A stretch of 39,113 nt of DNA from an uncultured Nannocystaceae bacterium (GTDB taxonomy: Bacteria > Myxococcota_A > Polyangia > Nannocystales > Nannocystaceae), in NCBI GenBank assembly GCA_964505145.1, contig CAZDHJ010000013.1, positions 50,662-89,774 on the forward strand, read 5' to 3'. The notes beneath the pieces were generated by a model. That model saw only the letters and a program-made list of their open reading frames with translations, did no database searches and was not told where the DNA came from. The position numbers and the translations under genes were made by a program. This document shows positions 14,364 through 26,533 of this stretch, in pieces. The number at the start of each line of letters is the position of its first letter. The first letter of the stretch is position 1.

Positions 14364-15229
14364 TCGTCGTGCGTTGCGATGCCTGCGGCGGTTCGGTCGC
14401 GTTCGATGCCGAGCGCGCGCGGGCGCAGTGCCTCTTCTGTGCCGCGGTCGCGCTCGAGCCGGTGCCGCTGGCGCAACCACCGGCGCCGCCCGAGCGCGTG
14501 GTGCCGTTTTCGATCGACGACGCCGCCGCGCGCGGACGCTTCGCGCAGTGGTGCCGGGGATCGTGGTGGCGCCCCGTGGCGTTGCGCGAGGTCGCGTTGC
14601 AGCTGCAACCGCTGTGGCTGCCGGCCTGGCGCGCGCGTGCCGAGGTCGAGCTGCACTGGGCCGGCCTGGTCGCCGCGCGTACGCGCAGCGGTCGACGCCC
14701 GCGCGCCGGCGTCGACCGTGGCACCGCCGAGGCGATGATCCCGGCGTCGCTGGGCATCTCGCCCGCGGAGCTGTCCCACGCCGCACCGTTTCCGCCAGCC
14801 AGCCGCAGCTGGACCGCCCACGACGGCGCGATCGCACGCGAGTTGCCGAGCTTGACCGAGGCGGGCGCACGCGCACGCGTGCTCGCGGCGCTCGAGGCCA
14901 CGCGGCTGCGCGAGGTCGCCGCGCGCGAGCACCTGCACGATCCCGGCGGCACCGCGCGGCTACACGCGCTCGCAACCTCGCTCGAGTCGCTGCCGGTCTA
15001 CATCGGCGCGTTCCGCTTCCGCGACCGCCCCTGGCGCGTGGTGATCAACGGCGCGACCGGCAAGCTGGTCGGCCGCGCGCCGATCGATCGCGTCAAGCTC
15101 ACGATCGCGATCGCGATCGGCGTGCTCGTGCTGCTGGCGCTGGCGTGGTGGTCGCGGCCGCCCGACGATCAACCCGGCGGCCCCGAGGACGACTCGAAGC
15201 CCAGCGTCACGCGCAGCCGCTCGTTCTGA
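14354..15229 (+). CDS. Zinc-ribbon protein with C-terminal transmembrane anchor, paralogue B, about 291 aa.
   Basis: GTG at 14354/14360 overlaps the TGA of paralogue A (14361-14363). N-terminal RCDACGGSV...CLFCAAV zinc ribbon. Shared VPF(S/A)I and ...VVINGATGKLVGRAPIDR... blocks. C-terminal TM helix LTIAIAIGVLVLLALAWW. Confidence 0.6.
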   Translation: MVVIVVRCDACGGSVAFDAERARAQCLFCAAVALEPVPLAQPPAPPERVVPFSIDDAAARGRFAQWCRGSWWRPVALREVALQLQPLWLPAWRARAEVELHWAGLVAARTRSGRRPRAGVDRGTAEAMIPASLGISPAELSHAAPFPPASRSWTAHDGAIARELPSLTEAGARARVLAALEATRLREVAAREHLHDPGGTARLHALATSLESLPVYIGAFRFRDRPWRVVINGATGKLVGRAPIDRVKLTIAIAIGVLVLLALAWWSRPPDDQPGGPEDDSKPSVTRSRSF

Positions 15230-15945
15230 CCGATGGTGTTGCCCATGGTCGTGTTGGTCTGCAGGTCGCCGTCGATGGTGTACTCGACGGTCTCGGGCGC
15301 CGCGTTGTCGCCCAGCGCGACGAAGCTCGCGACGTAGTTGCCGAACTCGGTCGGCTGGCCCTCGTACTCGAGCCCGATCTCCGCGAGGTTGAGCCCGCCG
15401 CCGGCCGGCAGCGCGTAGGCGAACACGCCCGAGATCGTCAGGTAGCGCCCGTCGAGCTCGAACACGCCGTCCTGGTCGGAGTAGTAGACGTCGTAGAACT
15501 CGGTGTCGACGCCCTTGATGTCGCGGTTGGCGTCGCCGAGCGGATCGTCGAGCCGCGTGGTCAGCTCGGCGCCGTCGACCGCGAAGGTGTAGGGCGTGGG
15601 CGCGTCGCCGCCCGAGCGCTCGTAGAAGGTGATCGAGACCAGGCCCGGGATCATGCGCACGGGGTAGGTCGTGGGCCCGCCGCTGCCGCTGCCGTCGCCG
15701 CCGAGGTCGAACTTGAAGTCGCTGCTGGTGCTGCCGTCGGTGCCGCCCATCGACGTCATCGATGCGCCGCCGCCGGTGGTGCCGCCGGTGGTGCCGTCGC
15801 CGCTGCCGCCCGCGCTCGACGAGCCGCCTTGCAGGGTCGTGCTCGACAGCGTGGTCGCGGTGCCGCCGTCGCCGCGGCCCTCGTCCGCACCGCACGCGGC
15901 CAGCCAGGTCAGCACCAGTGTCGACGCGGCGCGGCCGGGGCTCAT
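15169..15945 (-). CDS. Hypothetical lipoprotein of 258 aa.
   Basis: ATG at 15945 (MSPGRAASTLVLTWLAA-C). Gly/Ser/Thr-rich linker. 4-nt ATGA overlap with the prolyl oligopeptidase gene upstream. Its 3' end overlaps the convergent gene by about 60 nt. Confidence 0.65.
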   Translation of the reverse strand: MSPGRAASTLVLTWLAACGADEGRGDGGTATTLSSTTLQGGSSSAGGSGDGTTGGTTGGGASMTSMGGTDGSTSSDFKFDLGGDGSGSGGPTTYPVRMIPGLVSITFYERSGGDAPTPYTFAVDGAELTTRLDDPLGDANRDIKGVDTEFYDVYYSDQDGVFELDGRYLTISGVFAYALPAGGGLNLAEIGLEYEGQPTEFGNYVASFVALGDNAAPETVEYTIDGDLQTNTTMGNTIGQNERLRVTLGFESSSGPPG

Positions 15946-18167
15946 TGCGTCATCGTAGCAGCTTCGCGCGCGGGCCCGACGCCCAGGGCGTGGAGCAGGA
16001 ACGAGAACGTGTCCACGGCCTGCTCGATGTCCTTCTTGATCATGTCCGAACCGCCGTGGCCAGCGTTGGTCTCGATGCGCAGGTATACCGGCCTGGGCGA
16101 GACCGCCTGCATCGCCGCGACGAACTTGCGCGCGTGCATCGGGTCGACGCGGTCGTCGCTGTCCGCCGACAGCATGAGCATCGCCGGGTAGGGCTTGCCG
16201 CGCGCGACGTGGTGGTAGGGCGAGTACGCGAACAACGTCTCGAACTGGCCGCGATCCTCGGCCGAGCCGTACTCGGCGATCCACGTGCGGCCGGCACCGA
16301 AGAGGTGGTAGCGGACCATGTCGAGCAGCGGCACCGCGCACACGACCGCACCGAACAGCTCGGGGTGCTGCGTCATCGCGGCGCCGACCAGCAGGCCACC
16401 GTTGCTGCCGCCCATGATCGCGAGCTTGTCGGGCCGCGTGATGTCCTGCGCGATCAGGTGCTGCGCCGCCGCGGCGAAGTCGTCGAACACGTTCTGCTTG
16501 TTGGCGCCCATACCCGACTGGTGCCAGGCCTCGCCGAACTCGCCGCCGCCGCGCAGGTTGGCCACCGCGTACACGCCACCGTGCTCGAGCCACAACACCG
16601 CGCGTGAGCTGAAGTTGGGCTCGAGGCTGACATTGAAGCCGCCGTAGCCCACCAGCAGCGTGGGGTTGTCGCCACGGCGCTGCATGTCCTTGCGGTGGAC
16701 CACGAACATCGGCACCCGGGTGCCGTCCTTCGACGTGAACCACATCTGCTCGGTCACGAACTGCGAGGTGTCGACCGGGATCTCGATCTTCTGCCACAGC
16801 TCCGACTTGCCCGACGCGATCGACGTCTTGAAGATCTGCGGCGTCTCGGTGAACGAGCTGAAGTAGTAGTAGCCCTCGTCCTCGTCGGGCTCGCCGAGGA
16901 TGCCGCTCGCGCTGCCGATGCCGGGCAGCTCGACCTTGCGCACGAGCTTGCCCGCCAGATCGTGAACCTCGAGCTCGGAGTGGGCGTCGCGCAGGTACGA
17001 CAGCACCAGGTGGTCGCCGACGACGCTGGCGCCGTCGAGCACCGCGTCGGACTCGGGCACGATCTCGCGCCAGTGTTCGCGCGCGCGCTTGGCCGGATCG
17101 ACCACGTACACGCGATAGCGCGGCGCGCCGTCGTTGGTGTGGACGTAGAACTTGTCGCGCCAGGCGCTGACCGAGAAGATCGCCGGCTTGTCCTTCACCA
17201 GCGGCTCGAACTTCGGCGCAGCGGTGGGCGGGCGGCGCTTGCCGCCCTTGGCCCTGCCGAGATCGGCGACGTAGACGTCGCTCGCGCTCCAGCCGCGCGA
17301 GTGGTTCACCAGCAGCCAGCGGCCATCGCGTGACACCGACGCGCCGACGAAGCGCGTGGGATCGTGCGACGCCGGGAACATGATCGGGTCGGTCTTGGGA
17401 TCGGTGCCCAGCCGATGGAAGCGCACGTCGGCGTGCCCCGGCAGCTCCGCCACCGGGATCGCGGGATCGGTCGGCAGGTTCACGTAGAAGAAGCCCGAGT
17501 CGTCGGGCAACCACGACGCCGCGGCATAGCGCGCGCCCTCGATGGTGTCGATGGTGAGCTCGGTGTTGGTGTCGAGATCGCGGACGTACAACGTCGCGGC
17601 GTCGGCGTTGTTGCGCGACAGCTTGTACGCGAGGTAGCGGCCGCTGCGGCTGGGCATCACGCCGTGGACCGAGACGCTGCCGTCGGCCGACATCGTGTTG
17701 GGATCGAGCAGCACCTCCTCGGCGCCATGCTCACCCTTGCGCACGTAGTAGATCGCCTTCTCCTTGTCCTTGTGGCTGCGGGTGTAGAAGTAGCGGCTGC
17801 CGCGGTGGGCCGGCGGCGAGATCGAGTCGAGGTACGACAGCTCCGAGAGTCGCTGCTCGAGGTCCGCCCGCAGCGGCAGCGCGCCCAGGCGCTTGCGGGC
17901 GTAGTCGTCCTGCGCCTTCATCCACGCCGCGACCTCGGGGTCGTCGACGTTCTCGAGCCAGCGGTACGGGTCGTCGACCTTGCGGCCGAACAGGACGTCG
18001 CTGACCTCGCTCGCGCGGGTCGTCGGGGTGGTCGTGTCGTCGTGCGCGGTGGGCATCGTGGCGCCGCCACCTCCGGGGGTCGTGCTCGTCCCGCCGGCGC
18101 CGTCGCGGTCCGGTCGGCACGAGAGCAGCGCGAGCGCGAGCAGGGAGACCGTCGGCAGGTGGCGCAT
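15942..18167 (-). CDS. Prolyl oligopeptidase (S9A family) lipoprotein, 741 aa.
   Basis: ATG at 18167 (MRHLPTVSLLALALLS-C). An N-terminal beta-propeller domain is followed by an alpha/beta-hydrolase catalytic domain. The catalytic domain has the GGSNGG nucleophile elbow, then DDRV and GHGG, giving a Ser/Asp/His triad. Strong overall S9A resemblance. Confidence 0.9.
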   Translation of the reverse strand: MRHLPTVSLLALALLSCRPDRDGAGGTSTTPGGGGATMPTAHDDTTTPTTRASEVSDVLFGRKVDDPYRWLENVDDPEVAAWMKAQDDYARKRLGALPLRADLEQRLSELSYLDSISPPAHRGSRYFYTRSHKDKEKAIYYVRKGEHGAEEVLLDPNTMSADGSVSVHGVMPSRSGRYLAYKLSRNNADAATLYVRDLDTNTELTIDTIEGARYAAASWLPDDSGFFYVNLPTDPAIPVAELPGHADVRFHRLGTDPKTDPIMFPASHDPTRFVGASVSRDGRWLLVNHSRGWSASDVYVADLGRAKGGKRRPPTAAPKFEPLVKDKPAIFSVSAWRDKFYVHTNDGAPRYRVYVVDPAKRAREHWREIVPESDAVLDGASVVGDHLVLSYLRDAHSELEVHDLAGKLVRKVELPGIGSASGILGEPDEDEGYYYFSSFTETPQIFKTSIASGKSELWQKIEIPVDTSQFVTEQMWFTSKDGTRVPMFVVHRKDMQRRGDNPTLLVGYGGFNVSLEPNFSSRAVLWLEHGGVYAVANLRGGGEFGEAWHQSGMGANKQNVFDDFAAAAQHLIAQDITRPDKLAIMGGSNGGLLVGAAMTQHPELFGAVVCAVPLLDMVRYHLFGAGRTWIAEYGSAEDRGQFETLFAYSPYHHVARGKPYPAMLMLSADSDDRVDPMHARKFVAAMQAVSPRPVYLRIETNAGHGGSDMIKKDIEQAVDTFSFLLHALGVGPAREAATMTQ

Positions 18168-18367
18168 GGGCGCGGATGCTAGCAGTCCGCGCGAGGTGGG
18201 CCGGGTCGGCATGGAGGCTTCGAAACCTGCCGCAGCCGTGCGGTTTCGCGGCGCCGGCCGCCGCGGTGCCGCGGGCATGGCGACCTGCCGACCAGCGTGG
18301 CGCCGGGTGCCTCCGGCCGCCGGCAGTGGACAGCATCGCCCGGCAGTGCTCCGATGGACGGCGGCGA

Positions 18368-18948
18368 TGCTGGACGCGTCGGAGATCGATCGGCCCAAGG
18401 GCGAGCCGCGGATCCGCGGCGCGATCGTCCTCAACAACCTCGTGGGCTTCGAGGACGTCGTCGGCGCCGACGTGGTCCGGCGCGCCCTGGCCGGGCTGCC
18501 GCCCGAGCTGGTGCACGAGGCCAGCACGGTGGTGCCGGTGGCGTGGGTCCGCGCCGATCTGGTCGACTCGCTGTTCGCCGCGATTGCGCACGCGGCCAAG
18601 CGCGAGCCCGAGGAGCTGTTCCCCGAAGCGATCGAGCGCGGGGTCTACCGCACGCTGCACACGGTGTGGCGCGCGCTCATGCACCTGTCGAGCGACGCGG
18701 CCATCGTCAAGCGCACCCCGGCGTTGTTCGCCCGCACCTACTCGTGCGGGCGGCTCGAAGCGCGCTTCCTCGGCGACGGCGCCGCGGAGGCCGAGCTGTT
18801 CGAGTGGCCGGGGGTCTCGCGCTTCCGCATGCTTGCGATCGCGGCGGGCGTGCGCGCGGTGCTGCGGGTCGCGGGCCGCGACGAGGTCGTGGTCCGCAGC
18901 GAACGCACCGCCGACGGCGCCCGCTTCCGCGCCAGCTGGAAGCGCTGA
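18368..18948 (+). CDS. DUF2378 (TIGR02265-like) Myxococcales paralogous-family protein, 193 aa.
   Basis: ATG at 18368 (MLDASEIDRPKGEPRIRGAIVLNNLVGFEDVVG...). Length and composition match the Myxococcus-specific TIGR02265 family. The upstream part of track ORF 17980..18948 is a shadow frame. Confidence 0.6.
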
Positions 18949-22036: not shown

Positions 22037-22468
22037 TCACCGCGTCGCCGCGCGCTTGGCCCGGACGCCGGCGACGGCCGCCGCGACCACGCTCCACACG
22101 AACATCGCGGCGAGGATGATCGAGAGCGCCCACAGCCACAGCGCGTGCAGCACGACGACGCCGCCGGCGTGCATCGACATCATGGTCGAGAGCAGGGTCC
22201 AAGGTCCGAGCAAGAGCGACGCGACCAGCGGCCGGGCCCACGAGCGGCGGTAGGACCACGGCCGCAGCATCGCGTAGAGGATCGCGAACTCGATCGCGAG
22301 CGCCACGAGGCCTTGCAGCAGCGCCCCCTCGTGATTGCCGTGCTCACGCACGACCGTGGGCGGCCCGGGATCGCGGTACCAATCCCGCACCATCGCAGCG
22401 GCTGTCGCCGCGGTCAGCAGCGGCAACCACAACAGGTGGATCGTGCGCAGCGGTGACCGGCGGCTCAC
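22037..22468 (-). CDS. Small integral membrane protein, about 143 aa.
   Basis: The GTG start overlaps the fhs stop (GTGA at 22465-22468). Three or four hydrophobic helices (IHLLWLPLLTAATAAAMV, LVALAIEFAILYAML, VVVLHALWLWALSIILAAMFVWSVVAAAVAG). The start could instead be the internal ATG (MVRDW...). Confidence 0.5.
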   Translation of the reverse strand: MSRRSPLRTIHLLWLPLLTAATAAAMVRDWYRDPGPPTVVREHGNHEGALLQGLVALAIEFAILYAMLRPWSYRRSWARPLVASLLLGPWTLLSTMMSMHAGGVVVLHALWLWALSIILAAMFVWSVVAAAVAGVRAKRAATR

Positions 22469-24099
22469 GACAGCCCGACGATGGTGCCGTCCTGGAGGTC
22501 GATCTTCGCCGCGGCCGGGACCTTGGGCAGACCCGGCATGCGCATGAGCTCGCCGGTCAGCACGACGATGAAGCCGGCGCCGGCGTTGATCTGCAGCCCG
22601 CGCACGGTGATCTCGAAGTCGCGCGGACGGCCGCGCAGCTTGGGATCGTCCGACAGCGAGTTCTGGGTCTTGGCCACGCAGATCGGCAGGTTGCCGTAGC
22701 CGAGCTTGTCGATGTCCTTGAGGTCGCGCTCGGCCGACTTGGTGAAGGCCACGCCGCGCGCACCGTACATCGCCCGGGCCACGGCCTCGATCTTGGCCGG
22801 GATGGACGCCTCGAGCGGATACAGCGGCTCGAAGCGAGCGCCGCCCTTGTCGACCGCGGCGATGACCTGGCGACCGAGCTCGAGCGCCCCCTCGCCGCCG
22901 CGACCGAAGTGCTCGCACACCGCCACGCCCACGCCACGCTTGGCGCAGGCCTCGGCGACCACGGCGAGTTCCTCGTCGGTGTCGCTGCCGAAGCGGTTGA
23001 GCGCGACCACGGCGGGCTTGCCGAAGCGCGCGACGCTCTCGAGGTGCTTCTCGAGGTTGGGCAGGCCCGCGGCCACGCCCGCGGGATCGGGCCTGTTGAT
23101 CGCGTCGAGCGCGACGCCACCGTGCATCTTGAGCGCGCGCGCGGTCGCGACCAGCACGACCGCGTCGGGATCGAAGCCGGCGCTGCGGCACTTGATGTCG
23201 AAGAACTTCTCCGCGCCCAGGTCGAAGCCGAAGCCAGCCTCGGTCACGACCCAGTCCGCCAGCTTGAGCCCGGTGCGCGTGGCGATGACGCTGTTGCAGC
23301 CGTGCGCGATGTTGGCGAAGGGCCCGCCGTGCACGATCGCCGGGGTGCCCTGCTCGGTCTGCACGAGGTTGGGCAGCAGCGCGTCGCGCAGCAGCGCCAG
23401 CATCGCGCCGGTGACCCCGAGCGCGCCGGCGGTGACGGGTGCGCCGCTGCGATCGAAGCCGACCAGGGTACGATCGATGCGGCGGCGCAGATCGTCGGCG
23501 TCGTCGGCCAGGCACAGCATCGCCATCAGCTCCGACGCGGCGGTGATGTCGAAGCCGGCCTCGCGCGGGGTCCCGTTGGTCTCGCCGCCCAGGCCCACGA
23601 CGATGTTGCGCAGGCTGCGATCGTTCATGTCGATCACGCGGCGCCACAGCACCCGACGCGCGTCGAGCCCCGGCGCGGTGCCGAAGTGCACGCAATTGTC
23701 GATCGCCGCCGCCAGCAGGTTGTGCGCGCTGGTGATCGCGTGAAAGTCACCGTTGAAGTGCAGGTTGATGTCATCCGAGGGCGAGAGCCGACTGCGACCA
23801 CCGCCGGTGCCGCCGCCCTTGACGCCGAAGCACGGCCCCAACGATGGCTCGCGCAGCACCGCGGTCGCGCGGTGCCCCAGCAGCGTCAGCGCATCGGACA
23901 GCCCGATCGACGTCGTGGTCTTGCCCTCGCCCGCCGGCGTCGGCGTGATCGCGGAGACCAGCACCAACTTCGCCGGCGTCGCGCTCGCGCGCGGCCGCGT
24001 CAACACGGCGCGGTCGATCTTGGCCTTGTCGCGGCCAAACGGGATCAGATCGTCGGACGACAGGCCCAGGCGCGAAGCGACATCGAGCAGCGGCAGCAT
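22465..24099 (-). CDS. fhs: Formate--tetrahydrofolate ligase, 544 aa.
   Basis: ATG at 24099 (MLPLLDVASRLGLSSDDLIPFG...). Canonical Fhs blocks PTPAGEGKTTTSIGL, FDITAASELMA and VVTEAGFG..DIKCR. The 5' part of track ORF 22465..24468 is a shadow frame. Confidence 0.9.
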   Translation of the reverse strand: MLPLLDVASRLGLSSDDLIPFGRDKAKIDRAVLTRPRASATPAKLVLVSAITPTPAGEGKTTTSIGLSDALTLLGHRATAVLREPSLGPCFGVKGGGTGGGRSRLSPSDDINLHFNGDFHAITSAHNLLAAAIDNCVHFGTAPGLDARRVLWRRVIDMNDRSLRNIVVGLGGETNGTPREAGFDITAASELMAMLCLADDADDLRRRIDRTLVGFDRSGAPVTAGALGVTGAMLALLRDALLPNLVQTEQGTPAIVHGGPFANIAHGCNSVIATRTGLKLADWVVTEAGFGFDLGAEKFFDIKCRSAGFDPDAVVLVATARALKMHGGVALDAINRPDPAGVAAGLPNLEKHLESVARFGKPAVVALNRFGSDTDEELAVVAEACAKRGVGVAVCEHFGRGGEGALELGRQVIAAVDKGGARFEPLYPLEASIPAKIEAVARAMYGARGVAFTKSAERDLKDIDKLGYGNLPICVAKTQNSLSDDPKLRGRPRDFEITVRGLQINAGAGFIVVLTGELMRMPGLPKVPAAAKIDLQDGTIVGLS

Positions 24100-24275
24100 C
24101 GCGCACGACCGTACCCGCCTTCGCGCGCGAGGTGAACCACGGGCGGCGCAAGCCGGCCGCCGACGCCCCGCGCGCCGCCGCGGCACCATCGCGGCCGTGC
24201 GCGGCCGGGGGCGGGTGTGCCAGCCGCCGCGGCCGCGCGACGATCGGCCCCCCCGACGGTGTGTACGATCGCCCG

Positions 24276-25646
24276 ATGGTCGACGTGCTACAGGAGTTTC
24301 GCCGCGCGTTGTGGTTCGCGGCCGCGGGCTCGCTCGCGTGCGGGCCCACGGTGGTCGCCCCGGGCGGCGATGCGGGAGCAGACGGGAGCTCGTCTTCCGG
24401 GCTCGGCACCGACACCGCCGCGTCGCACTCGAGCAGTGCCGACGCGAGCGCCACGACGGCGACCGCAACGAGCGCGGCCGGCACGGACTCGCTCGATGGC
24501 GGCTCGACCGACGCGCCGATCAAGTTCGACCTCGGCGCCCCCGACAGCGGTGTGCCGCCCGAGTGCGTTCCGACCGTGACGCCGCGCGAACCGTGCGAGG
24601 TGCCGCCACCGCCGGACGCCATCGACGTGCGACTGCTGTGCGTCTCGCCGGCAGTCGAGTGCGCGACGTGGGCCGCTGCCTTCGACCCGGGCAACCTCGA
24701 CCCGGCGGCGCAGGCCGTCGTGCCCTGCATCGACGGCGGCGACGGCAGCTGTGGTGGCGGCACCCTCGGACCGATCCTGTGTGGGCCCTACGAAGGCGAC
24801 GACACCTGTTGCTTCTGGTTCGCGATCGAAGACACGCAGATCTGTCCTGGCCGCCCGTTCACGATCGCAGGTACGGCCCGACGTGCGACTGCCCGCGCGA
24901 ACGCGGCGTGGCTCGCCGCCGAGCCGAGCGCGACCGTGGGCTCGCGCGACGCCGACGCGATCGCGGCGGCCTGGACCGAGGCAGCGCTCTTCGAGCACGC
25001 GTCGGTCGCCTCGTTCGCCCGCGCTGTGCTGCATCTACTCGCGGTCGCCGCCCCCGCCGAGCTGGTCGCGGCGACCCAGCGCTCGTTGTCGGAGGAGATC
25101 GGGCACGCGCGCAGCCTGTTCTCGCTCGCCTCGCGCTGGGCCGGCCACGCCGTGGGACCCGGGCCGCTCGACGTCGACGGCGCCCTGGCGGACGTCGCCA
25201 CGCTCGCGCAACTGGTCATCGCCACGGTCGAAGAGGGTTGCATCGCGGAGACGGTCTCCGCGTGGCAGCTCTACGTCGCGGCGGAACGTGCGGCGGATCC
25301 CGAGGTCCGCACGATGCTCCACCGCATCGCGCGAGAAGAGGTCGAGCACGCCGCGCTCGCGTGGCGCGTACTCGCGTGGGCGCTGCCGCAGGTCGAGCTC
25401 GAGACCCGGTGTGCGATCCAGCAGCGCTTCGCCGAGCCGCATCGGTACATCGCGCGCGGCCCACGGCTCGCGTCCGGTGTGAGCGACGAGACCTGGCGCG
25501 GCGCCGGCCTGCTGCCGGCGTGCGAGCGCGAAGCGGCGGCACGCAACGCGATCCATGCGCTGGTGTTGCCGACCGCGGCGATGGTGCTGACCGGCGCAGC
25601 GCCGGCGTTCGCCGACGATGCGGCGAGCGAGACCGTCACGGCATAG
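24276..25646 (+). CDS. Secreted protein with a Cys-rich N-domain and a ferritin-like di-iron domain, 456 aa.
   Basis: ATG at 24276 (MVDVLQEFRRALWFAAAGSLA-C). About 14 Cys in the N-terminal 230 aa. The C-terminal four-helix region has paired ExxH motifs (SEEIGHA ... REEVEHA) plus E-containing helices, typical of ferritin-like di-metal sites. Confidence 0.65.
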   Translation: MVDVLQEFRRALWFAAAGSLACGPTVVAPGGDAGADGSSSSGLGTDTAASHSSSADASATTATATSAAGTDSLDGGSTDAPIKFDLGAPDSGVPPECVPTVTPREPCEVPPPPDAIDVRLLCVSPAVECATWAAAFDPGNLDPAAQAVVPCIDGGDGSCGGGTLGPILCGPYEGDDTCCFWFAIEDTQICPGRPFTIAGTARRATARANAAWLAAEPSATVGSRDADAIAAAWTEAALFEHASVASFARAVLHLLAVAAPAELVAATQRSLSEEIGHARSLFSLASRWAGHAVGPGPLDVDGALADVATLAQLVIATVEEGCIAETVSAWQLYVAAERAADPEVRTMLHRIAREEVEHAALAWRVLAWALPQVELETRCAIQQRFAEPHRYIARGPRLASGVSDETWRGAGLLPACEREAAARNAIHALVLPTAAMVLTGAAPAFADDAASETVTA

Positions 25647-25695
25647 CGGCGGCCTCGGCTGAGGCGGCCGCGCGGGGCACCGACGCCAGGGCGAA

Positions 25696-26478
25696 TCACC
25701 CCCGCGCCGGGCCACAGCGTGTCTCGGTGCCGCAGCGCGCAGCGGTCGCGCCCGGGCGCGGCCGCTGGGGGCCGAGCACGGACTCGGGCGCCTGCCGGGC
25801 GCCGAGCGCCACGAGCATCCGGGCCGCAAGGTGCCACGCCCCGGTGCGGTCGAGCCACGGGTCGAGCCAGCCGTTGGTGATCGAGAAGTGCACGTCGTGC
25901 GGCGCGCGATGATGCACCGCGTGGTGCTCGGGCCGCAGGAGCAGGCCGCTGCGCTGCAGTGCGCGGATGATCGGGTGACACGGCCGACGCGCATGGGCAA
26001 AGCGGTGGATCTGGTTGGTGAAGGCGCCGAAGACCAGGAACACGACCCCGGTCGACGTCGCGGCCAGACCCCAGCGGGTCGTGTCGGTCGGCACCCACAG
26101 CGCGAGCACCAGCAGGATCGGCGTGCACAGCGTGATCGCGGGCGCGTTGAGCTCGCGGAAGCTCAGCGTGCAGATGATGCCGGGATGCTCGTGGTGCTGA
26201 CGGAAGCGGAACACGAACGCGGGCCCGAGCAGTGGCGTCTTCTCGTCGCCGAAGTTGTCGGCGACAACGTGCAGGAAGCCCGTGGCCAGCGCTGCGCCGA
26301 CGACACCGAGCGGCCATAGCAGCACCACCCAAGCGGTGGCGACACCGAAGCGGGCGAAGCCCGCGATGACGTCGATCGTCGCGGCGAGCAGCGCGAGCGG
26401 GAACACCGTCATCGCAACGAGCTCGACGGTGGACATCAGGACGTGAAAACGCCGCGTGCGCGGATGGACCTGCGCCAT
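25696..26478 (-). CDS. CarF/TMEM189-like membrane lipid desaturase (plasmanylethanolamine desaturase family), 260 aa.
   Basis: ATG at 26478 (MAQVHPRTRRFHVLMSTVELVAMTVF...). Several TM helices. Histidine-box clusters RFRQHHEHP, QIHRFAHARRPCHP and EHHAVHHRAPH, as in the Kua/TMEM189/CarF family. Co-directional and 55 nt downstream of the Cys-rich lipoprotein. Confidence 0.75.
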   Translation of the reverse strand: MAQVHPRTRRFHVLMSTVELVAMTVFPLALLAATIDVIAGFARFGVATAWVVLLWPLGVVGAALATGFLHVVADNFGDEKTPLLGPAFVFRFRQHHEHPGIICTLSFRELNAPAITLCTPILLVLALWVPTDTTRWGLAATSTGVVFLVFGAFTNQIHRFAHARRPCHPIIRALQRSGLLLRPEHHAVHHRAPHDVHFSITNGWLDPWLDRTGAWHLAARMLVALGARQAPESVLGPQRPRPGATAARCGTETRCGPARG

Positions 26479-26533
26479 CGACGGGATCAGTCTATCCCAC
26501 GGTCGATTGCGCAGGCCAGCCGCACGCCGGGGC

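Follow-up and report, generated by a model that had tools for sequence, protein, structure and literature searches.

PF10520 (Lipid_desat) groups together membrane di-iron desaturases represented by CarF from Myxococcus xanthus, PEDS1 (TMEM189) from animals and FAD4 from plants. To our knowledge, only two activities have been characterised in this family, those of PEDS1/CarF and of plant FAD4, both of them desaturations. PEDS1/CarF acts at the delta-1' position of the sn-1 alkyl chain of plasmanylethanolamine, and FAD4 at the delta-3-trans position of the sn-2 acyl chain of phosphatidylglycerol. All PF10520 members share eight essential histidines (PMC9131029), and in mouse PEDS1 D100 is essential and F118 is also important (PMC8960569). 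A ninth histidine (H113 in CarF, H131 in mouse PEDS1) is present in the metazoan, myxobacterial and Leptospira proteins, all of which have PEDS1 activity (PMC9131029), and is missing from the plant homologues, which usually have arginine at this site, and from the alphaproteobacterial ones, neither of which replaces CarF (PMC9131029, PMC8960569). H131 of the mouse enzyme sits behind the iron ligand H121, and the H131A variant keeps about 7% of the activity (PMC8960569). CarF proper is limited to the Cystobacterineae and Nannocystis exedens (54% identity to CarF, nine histidines), and the CarQRS signalling partners are missing from the Nannocystineae (PMC9304148); the VEPE/AEPE ether-lipid cluster has been reported missing from Nannocystis, Enhygromyxa and Pseudenhygromyxa (PMC12766979). 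Here we analyse a PF10520 homologue encoded on the minus strand (25696–26478) of a 39,113-nt stretch of DNA from an uncultured Nannocystaceae bacterium (contig CAZDHJ010000013.1, positions 50,662 to 89,774; hereafter the window, in which all positions are counted). This protein retains the eight histidines, but carries leucine at the site of the ninth.

The profile analysis confidently identified the window protein as a PF10520 member (132.9 bits against a gathering cut-off of 26.4, E=1.6e-38, profile positions 4–167 of 175); the sole other Pfam match, FA_hydroxylase (PF04116), reaches 22.5 bits and falls under its cut-off of 31, and a search of PDB sequences revealed no significant match to any chain. 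A preliminary description, made from the DNA letters alone, had proposed a 260-aa multi-pass membrane protein of the Kua/TMEM189/CarF family with dense histidine clusters, and all these features are borne out: no other di-iron family fits better, the reading frame is intact with coding-like third positions, four long helices appear in the AlphaFold2 model, and the clusters RQHHEH (H95, H96, H98), NQIHRFAHARRPCH (NQIHRFAH...H, with H158, H162 and H168) and EHHAVHH (H185, H186, H189, H190) can all be read in the translation. The model is confident (mean predicted local distance difference test score, pLDDT, 89.7), with the long helices at residues 9–44, 46–75, 107–128 and 135–152 and the histidine boxes coming after helices 2 and 4. 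The basic N-terminus and the analogy with CarF suggest that the boxes would all lie on one side of the membrane, the cytoplasmic one.

The first histidine box, H70-V-V-A-D74 (26257–26271, minus strand, as are all residues of this protein), was mapped to H96...D100 of mouse PEDS1 via a 271-aa rodent PEDS1 sequence (P0180), through which the mouse numbering (PMC8960569) was carried over and with which it agrees. In the family alignment, F92-R-Q-H95-H96 (26191–26205) corresponds to mouse F118, H121 and H122, the second box H158-R-F-A-H162 (25993–26007) to H187 and H191, and the third box H186-A-V-H189-H190 (25909–25923) to H215, H218 and H219. Vertebrate PEDS1 sequences were retrieved with an approximate human TMEM189 sequence as a bait (P0173 is 98% identical to it), which served for retrieval only and on which no conclusion rests. 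All eight family-wide histidines align to mouse PEDS1 with no insertion or deletion inside any box; seven of them, together with D74, are invariant in 173 of 173 sampled family sequences, and H162 is found in 172 (one has tyrosine). The essential Asp and Phe are thus kept as well (D74 = mouse D100, F92 = mouse F118), at positions that are invariant or near-invariant across the family.

The gene model is supported by several lines of evidence. The open reading frame comprises 260 codons and a stop, and its GC content at the three codon positions (0.72/0.52/0.90) is coding-like for a window of 72% GC and follows the same pattern as in the neighbouring genes. A longer reading frame, reaching 26724 (342 aa), was rejected. 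The ATG at 26478 is taken as the start because the extension is non-coding in this frame (third-position GC 0.63) and overlaps a real upstream gene; the N-terminal pattern MAQxxPRTxxF, common to the relatives P0003, P0005, P0014 and P0016, backs the same start. An identical protein (P0001) exists in public data on contigs from several sequencing runs, and the genome scan found a locus with 100% identity (L010, contig JAXLYC010000019.1) in the metagenome-assembled genome (MAG) of Nannocystaceae bacterium isolate STL-MYX3.

The ninth histidine sets the window protein apart. The preliminary description had proposed checking nine essential histidines against CarF/TMEM189; eight of the nine align exactly, but the site of CarF H113 and mouse H131 is occupied by Leu105 (codon CTG, 26164–26166), according to an alignment with mammalian PEDS1, Leptospira proteins and 80 genome loci. 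Position 105 is His in 127 and Leu in 21 of the 173 family sequences; in a tree of 282 sequences it is His in 213, and Leu in all 28 sampled tips of the clade described below (duplicate entries included). All animal PEDS1 sequences and sequences from named Leptospira species that were examined have His at this site. A similar picture emerges from the CarF model of NCBIfam, the equivalog NF045946 (cut-off 500 bits), which gives the window protein 97.4 bits, the lowest value among the sequences scored, tied with P0003 (97), compared with 233 bits for mammalian PEDS1, 218 for the Leptospira borgpetersenii homologue, 144–250 for 13 other bacterial or metagenomic homologues with nine histidines and 144–159 for three other relatives with leucine (P0010, P0007, P0023). 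No CarF equivalog was found by this score among the representatives and genome loci, none of which exceeds 250 bits. Judging from sequence, the window protein is most likely not an orthologue of CarF/PEDS1. The plasmalogen synthesis and singlet-oxygen signalling implied in the preliminary description are not supported, because the PEDS1-specific ninth histidine, found in all validated PEDS1 proteins, is replaced by Leu105. The window genes scanned against Pfam include no ether-lipid genes, and none of them codes for an enzyme of the plasmanyl-lipid pathway (ElbD or FAR/GNPAT/AGPS).

The leucine is not a peculiarity of one protein. An all-against-library HMMER search recovered 1643 family representatives at E<=1e-3 and only eight at E<=1e-30, and a profile of the close relatives, run against 5.8 billion proteins, picked out about 21 clusters at 296–413 bits, with the next score at 206 bits. 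By these profile scores the window protein is a member of a rare, discrete subfamily centred on Nannocystaceae/Polyangia, here called the Leu clade, whose named members come from ST9 and a TPA MAG, both Nannocystaceae, from a Polyangia MAG and from a MAG bearing the label Alphaproteobacteria; NCBI gives relatives the name 'fatty acid desaturase CarF family protein'. The clade exhibits the signature FRFRQHH...ICTLSFRELN...QAPESVxG. Leu105 is present in every member, inside ICTLSFRELN, where the His-bearing family members typically read ITRHDF(I/V)ETN, and where most other bacterial proteins and all animal PEDS1 proteins examined have His; FRFRQHH stands where other family members have F(I)RPFREHH, and the C-terminal motif, QAPESVLG in the window protein (residues 229–236, 25770–25793), is lacking in most other family members. 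Further clade-specific residues are R91 (Pro in others), Q94 (Glu), R108 (hydrophobic), F198 (Tyr), H216 and A219 (Glu). The neighbor-joining bootstrap value for the clade is 75%. In both trees, which contain neither CarF of M. xanthus nor FAD4 of plants nor the Bradyrhizobium homologue and whose deep nodes are weak, P0024 (Lys at position 105) joins the clade next; in the larger tree it is followed by P0079 (Glu) and then by a small group with His at this site, among them a Myxococcota MAG. This branching order hints that the Leu clade is derived from an ancestor with nine histidines.

The clade member labelled Alphaproteobacteria, 47% identical to the window protein, is encoded on a contig of 4.4 kb whose bin is named 'Alphaproteobacteria bacterium' (L011, JBEIQZ010000533.1; L092, P0017), which may be due either to horizontal transfer or to mis-binning of a myxobacterial contig. 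The binning is relevant because the published alphaproteobacterial homologues without the ninth histidine failed to replace CarF. A tblastn search against plasmids for alphaproteobacterial homologues gave no match.

Within the clade, the window protein itself differs at four near-invariant positions, kept in about 87–96% of the 173 sequences: D63A, W160F, C199S and N206D. The changes at 63, 199 and 206 also occur in at least one of the nearest relatives, P0002–P0005, and W160F is unique to the window protein: all other clade members, and almost all sequences of the family, have Trp there. Comparison with the two closest relatives gives a ratio of non-synonymous to synonymous substitution rates (dN/dS, NG86 method) of about 0.39 and about 0.48, which is purifying; the values are probably overestimated given the extreme GC bias at third codon positions.

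The reading that we favour, with moderate confidence, is that the window protein is a stand-alone, functional, O2-dependent PF10520 desaturase whose substrate or regiospecificity differs from the conversion of plasmanylethanolamine to plasmalogen, and which has no tie to the neighbouring genes for a major vault protein (MVP) homologue and a lipoprotein with D8C domains. The substrate or regiospecificity would most likely be different because the ninth histidine is changed to leucine and the neighbouring residues are altered. According to the structural model, the four membrane helices hold the three histidine boxes, with their eight histidines, in one extramembrane domain, where by homology the histidines would coordinate a pair of iron atoms and D74 and F92 would be the essential residues of the second shell. 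By extension from the two characterised family activities, a partner linked to NAD(P)H may supply the electrons that activate O2, and an intact glycerophospholipid may lose two hydrogens from one of its hydrocarbon chains, near the glycerol backbone. The second-shell histidine specific to PEDS1, behind the HH box, is swapped for leucine in the clade, together with the nearby replacements of Pro by R91, Glu by Q94 and a hydrophobic residue by R108. Certain points weigh against this interpretation. The ninth histidine is not strictly catalytic, since mouse H131A keeps about 7% of the activity (PMC8960569), and a co-adapted Leu/Arg pocket could support PEDS1 chemistry; D63A, W160F, C199S and N206D could reflect relaxed constraint; and co-transcription of the desaturase gene with the gene of the D8C lipoprotein is possible.

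A bolder proposal, which we regard as possible rather than probable, is that the Leu clade constitutes a third functional class of the CarF/PEDS1/FAD4 family, which may have arisen, once the plasmalogen pathway had been lost, from a myxobacterial ancestor with nine histidines, and may have acquired a new substrate or double-bond position through L105, R108, R91 and Q94. If this is true, marine or soil Nannocystaceae would possess a novel membrane-lipid specificity.

Among the alternatives to a desaturase of different specificity, the one that survives best, though we consider it unlikely, is that the protein is a genuine plasmanylethanolamine desaturase, with plasmalogens made despite the leucine. 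The same Pfam family, all eight metal-binding histidines and the essential Asp and Phe would fit such a function, as would the second-shell position of the ninth histidine and the residual activity of mouse H131A (PMC8960569); in addition, the nearest His-bearing neighbours of the clade in the larger tree include a Myxococcota sequence, and the automatic annotation at JGI calls one clade member 'plasmanylethanolamine desaturase'. However, both the ninth histidine and its flanking residues are replaced in every clade member, the score of 97 bits with the CarF model is the lowest tested (218–233 bits for validated PEDS1 lineages), homologues without the ninth histidine did not complement delta-carF (PMC9131029), the ether-lipid cluster is reported missing from cultured Nannocystaceae genera (PMC12766979), and the Pfam-scanned genes of the 39-kb window include no ether-lipid genes. 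It is quite improbable that the protein carries out some other di-iron oxidation instead of desaturation, for example the hydroxylation of lipids: the two PF10520 activities characterised so far are desaturations, the sub-threshold PF04116 score (cut-off 31) mirrors the shared geometry of the histidine boxes, and no PF10520 structure has been solved, so that the hydroxylase Scs7p is simply the nearest available fold.

It is very improbable that this MAG carries a decaying or functionless copy. The four changes at positions kept in about 87–96% of the family, the lowest CarF-model score tested (97 bits, tied with P0003) and a dN/dS of 0.39–0.48, which is not strongly purifying, would agree with decay, but the reading frame is intact, the codon bias is normal, and the eight histidines, D74 and F92 are all kept. 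The changes at 63, 199 and 206 are lineage traits, because they also occur in one or more of P0002–P0005; alanine replacements at most conserved non-His positions of mouse PEDS1 keep more than 20% of the activity (PMC8960569), and the identical protein is found on contigs from several sequencing runs.

In the window, the desaturase gene follows two co-directional genes. The preliminary description had placed it 55 nt downstream of a gene for a Cys-rich lipoprotein and co-directional with that gene and MVP, and both the spacing (26479–26533, minus strand, with the upstream stop codon at 26534–26536) and the adjacency proved to be correct; a sequence scan found neither a terminator-like nor a sigma-70-like site in this spacer. 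The upstream gene (26534–28309, minus strand) encodes a putative lipoprotein with a lipobox LLAGC and a likely true start at an ATG near 28237 (MREIRISGAASLCGLLLLAGC). The protein has a linker rich in Ser and Gly, a myxobacterial disulfide repeat (DUF4215) and, in tandem, three D8C domains of the uromodulin type (D8C_UMOD, PF23283, E=4e-44), its internal repeats being 58–63% identical among themselves. The D8C domain is best known from animal uromodulin and GP2. The MVP homologue (28528–31059, minus strand, 843 aa; MVP_shoulder E=1.9e-25, Vault_3 E=4.9e-11) is preceded on its 5' side by a gene for a 208-aa protein without a Pfam match (31108–31734) and a gene for a Ser/Thr kinase with tetratricopeptide repeats (31731–34730). 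A terminator-like hairpin CCGCGCTGCCGCGG with a T-rich tail (28282–28295, minus strand) is located after the MVP stop codon and ahead of the likely D8C lipoprotein start, and because of it MVP may be transcribed separately from the lipoprotein gene; it is the only such hairpin in 25400–28700, where 0.9 would be expected by chance.

On the other side, a convergent gene (24132–25646, plus strand) ends 49 nt from the desaturase stop. It encodes a protein of 461–504 aa with no significant Pfam domain, a lipoprotein-like N-terminus (GSLAC), a Cys-rich middle and a C-terminal region with weak ferritin-like hints: the NCBIfam model of EncB-family encapsulin cargo (E=0.004), Rubrerythrin (E=0.036) and EncFtn-like (E=0.05). 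A ferritin-like hint near the gene of a vault shell is curious, yet all these matches are below threshold. Beyond it, at 22037–24099 on the minus strand, a formate-tetrahydrofolate ligase gene (PF01268, E=2.5e-237) overlaps by 4 nt a downstream gene for a 143-aa hydrophobic protein without a Pfam match; the list of open reading frames lets the ligase begin about 120 aa upstream of the probable ATG at 24099.

The analysis of genomic neighborhood in relatives revealed eight different surroundings of the desaturase gene at nine other clade loci. The closest relative (L006/L007, 69% identity) has an AI-2E transporter gene upstream and an unrelated convergent gene; Nannocystaceae ST9 (L003) and a JGI contig (L004) have a prolyl oligopeptidase gene upstream and a convergent radical-SAM gene, an arrangement that is alike in the two (radical-SAM genes 92% identical) because the genomes are close relatives. 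The neighbours are a 2-hydroxyacid dehydrogenase at the P0003 locus (L005), PALP and AMP-binding enzymes at the P0013 locus (L008), MurJ at the P0295 locus (L090), a MAPEG protein at the P0294 locus (L091) and an esterase at the P0017 locus (L092). A conserved radical-SAM partner was considered and rejected, as the L003/L004 genes match neither the L005 radical-SAM gene nor the window. The window has an S9 prolyl oligopeptidase gene too (15942–18527, minus strand), on the opposite side of the desaturase at a distance of about 7 kb; its product is 38–41% identical to the L003 and L004 enzymes, whose genes (L003 5629–7845, L004 5659–7881) lie directly upstream of the clade desaturases, and on this evidence they are probably different genes. 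A second PF10520 paralogue following the window prolyl oligopeptidase, as in L003/L004, was also rejected, the 258-aa gene at that place (15169–15945) having no PF10520 match.

The window MVP, the D8C protein, the convergent gene and other neighbours were compared by tblastn with 88 other related loci. None of the 88 carries MVP, the D8C domain or the convergent gene within 8–10 kb of the desaturase homologue; the sole match to the D8C protein covers the disulfide-repeat region only, 9 kb from the homologue in L030. Thus, the co-expression and functional link proposed in the preliminary description are left without comparative support (0/88 loci), although co-transcription is possible, since the spacer has no terminator-like site. 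The position of the desaturase gene after the D8C lipoprotein and MVP is probably a lineage-specific accident of gene order, to judge from these comparisons, and does not represent a conserved module; CarF genes are likewise isolated (PMC9304148). That the three genes form one envelope- or vault-related module is extremely improbable, for although they are co-directional and the 55-nt gap contains no terminator-like site, homologues of MVP, the D8C protein and the convergent gene are not found within 8–10 kb of the desaturase at any of the 88 loci, the closest relative has an AI-2E transporter upstream, the neighbourhoods in the clade all differ, true CarF genes also stand alone (PMC9304148), and a terminator-like hairpin, albeit one such site is at chance level, separates MVP from the likely lipoprotein start.

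The PF10520 family and its eight-histidine, non-PEDS1 members are already known; what our analysis adds is that a small subfamily of the Leu type is recognised, and that its members should not be taken for plasmalogen enzymes or for parts of vault-linked modules. In databases, all PF10520 members tend to be called 'plasmanylethanolamine desaturase' or 'CarF family' without distinction. The ninth histidine, the sole sequence criterion dividing plasmalogen-making enzymes from the other members, is lacking in the window protein, which therefore provides no evidence for aerobic plasmalogen synthesis in Nannocystaceae; this bears on current arguments for a myxobacterial origin of eukaryotic plasmalogen synthesis. 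A tempting link between lipid remodelling and a bacterial vault-protein gene is also removed as unsupported. With its natural variation in the second shell, the Leu clade provides a defined and testable set of proteins for studying how substrate and regiospecificity are controlled in the family.

Compared with the known systems, the window protein resembles CarF of M. xanthus and animal PEDS1 in the PF10520 domain, the equal spacing of the eight essential histidines, the Asp and Phe residues and the predicted topology of four transmembrane helices; along the full alignment, it is about 25% identical to mammalian PEDS1. It differs from them in leucine for the ninth histidine, in ICTLSFRELN instead of ITRHDFIETN and FRFRQHH instead of FIRPFREHH, in the extra C-terminal QAPESVxG conserved in its clade, and in a CarF-model score of 97 bits compared with 218–233 for the validated lineages and the 500-bit equivalog cut-off; unlike for M. 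xanthus CarF, a signalling context of the CarQRS type is not expected outside Cystobacterineae (PMC9304148). With the CarF orthologue of Nannocystis exedens it shares the Nannocystaceae lineage and the PF10520 domain, but that protein is 54% identical to M. xanthus CarF and has nine histidines (PMC9304148), and the 97 bits and eight histidines of the window protein place it in a different lineage of the family. The solved membrane di-iron enzymes, the hydroxylase Scs7p/FA2H and the desaturase SCD1, show only 15% identity and another arrangement of histidine boxes. From the plant FAD4 type the clade is distinguished by leucine where plants usually have arginine, and we know of no chloroplast-type phosphatidylglycerol substrate context in myxobacteria. 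With FAD4 of Arabidopsis and the alphaproteobacterial homologues, the window protein shares the eight-histidine motif without the ninth histidine, and those proteins do not complement delta-carF (PMC9131029, PMC8960569).

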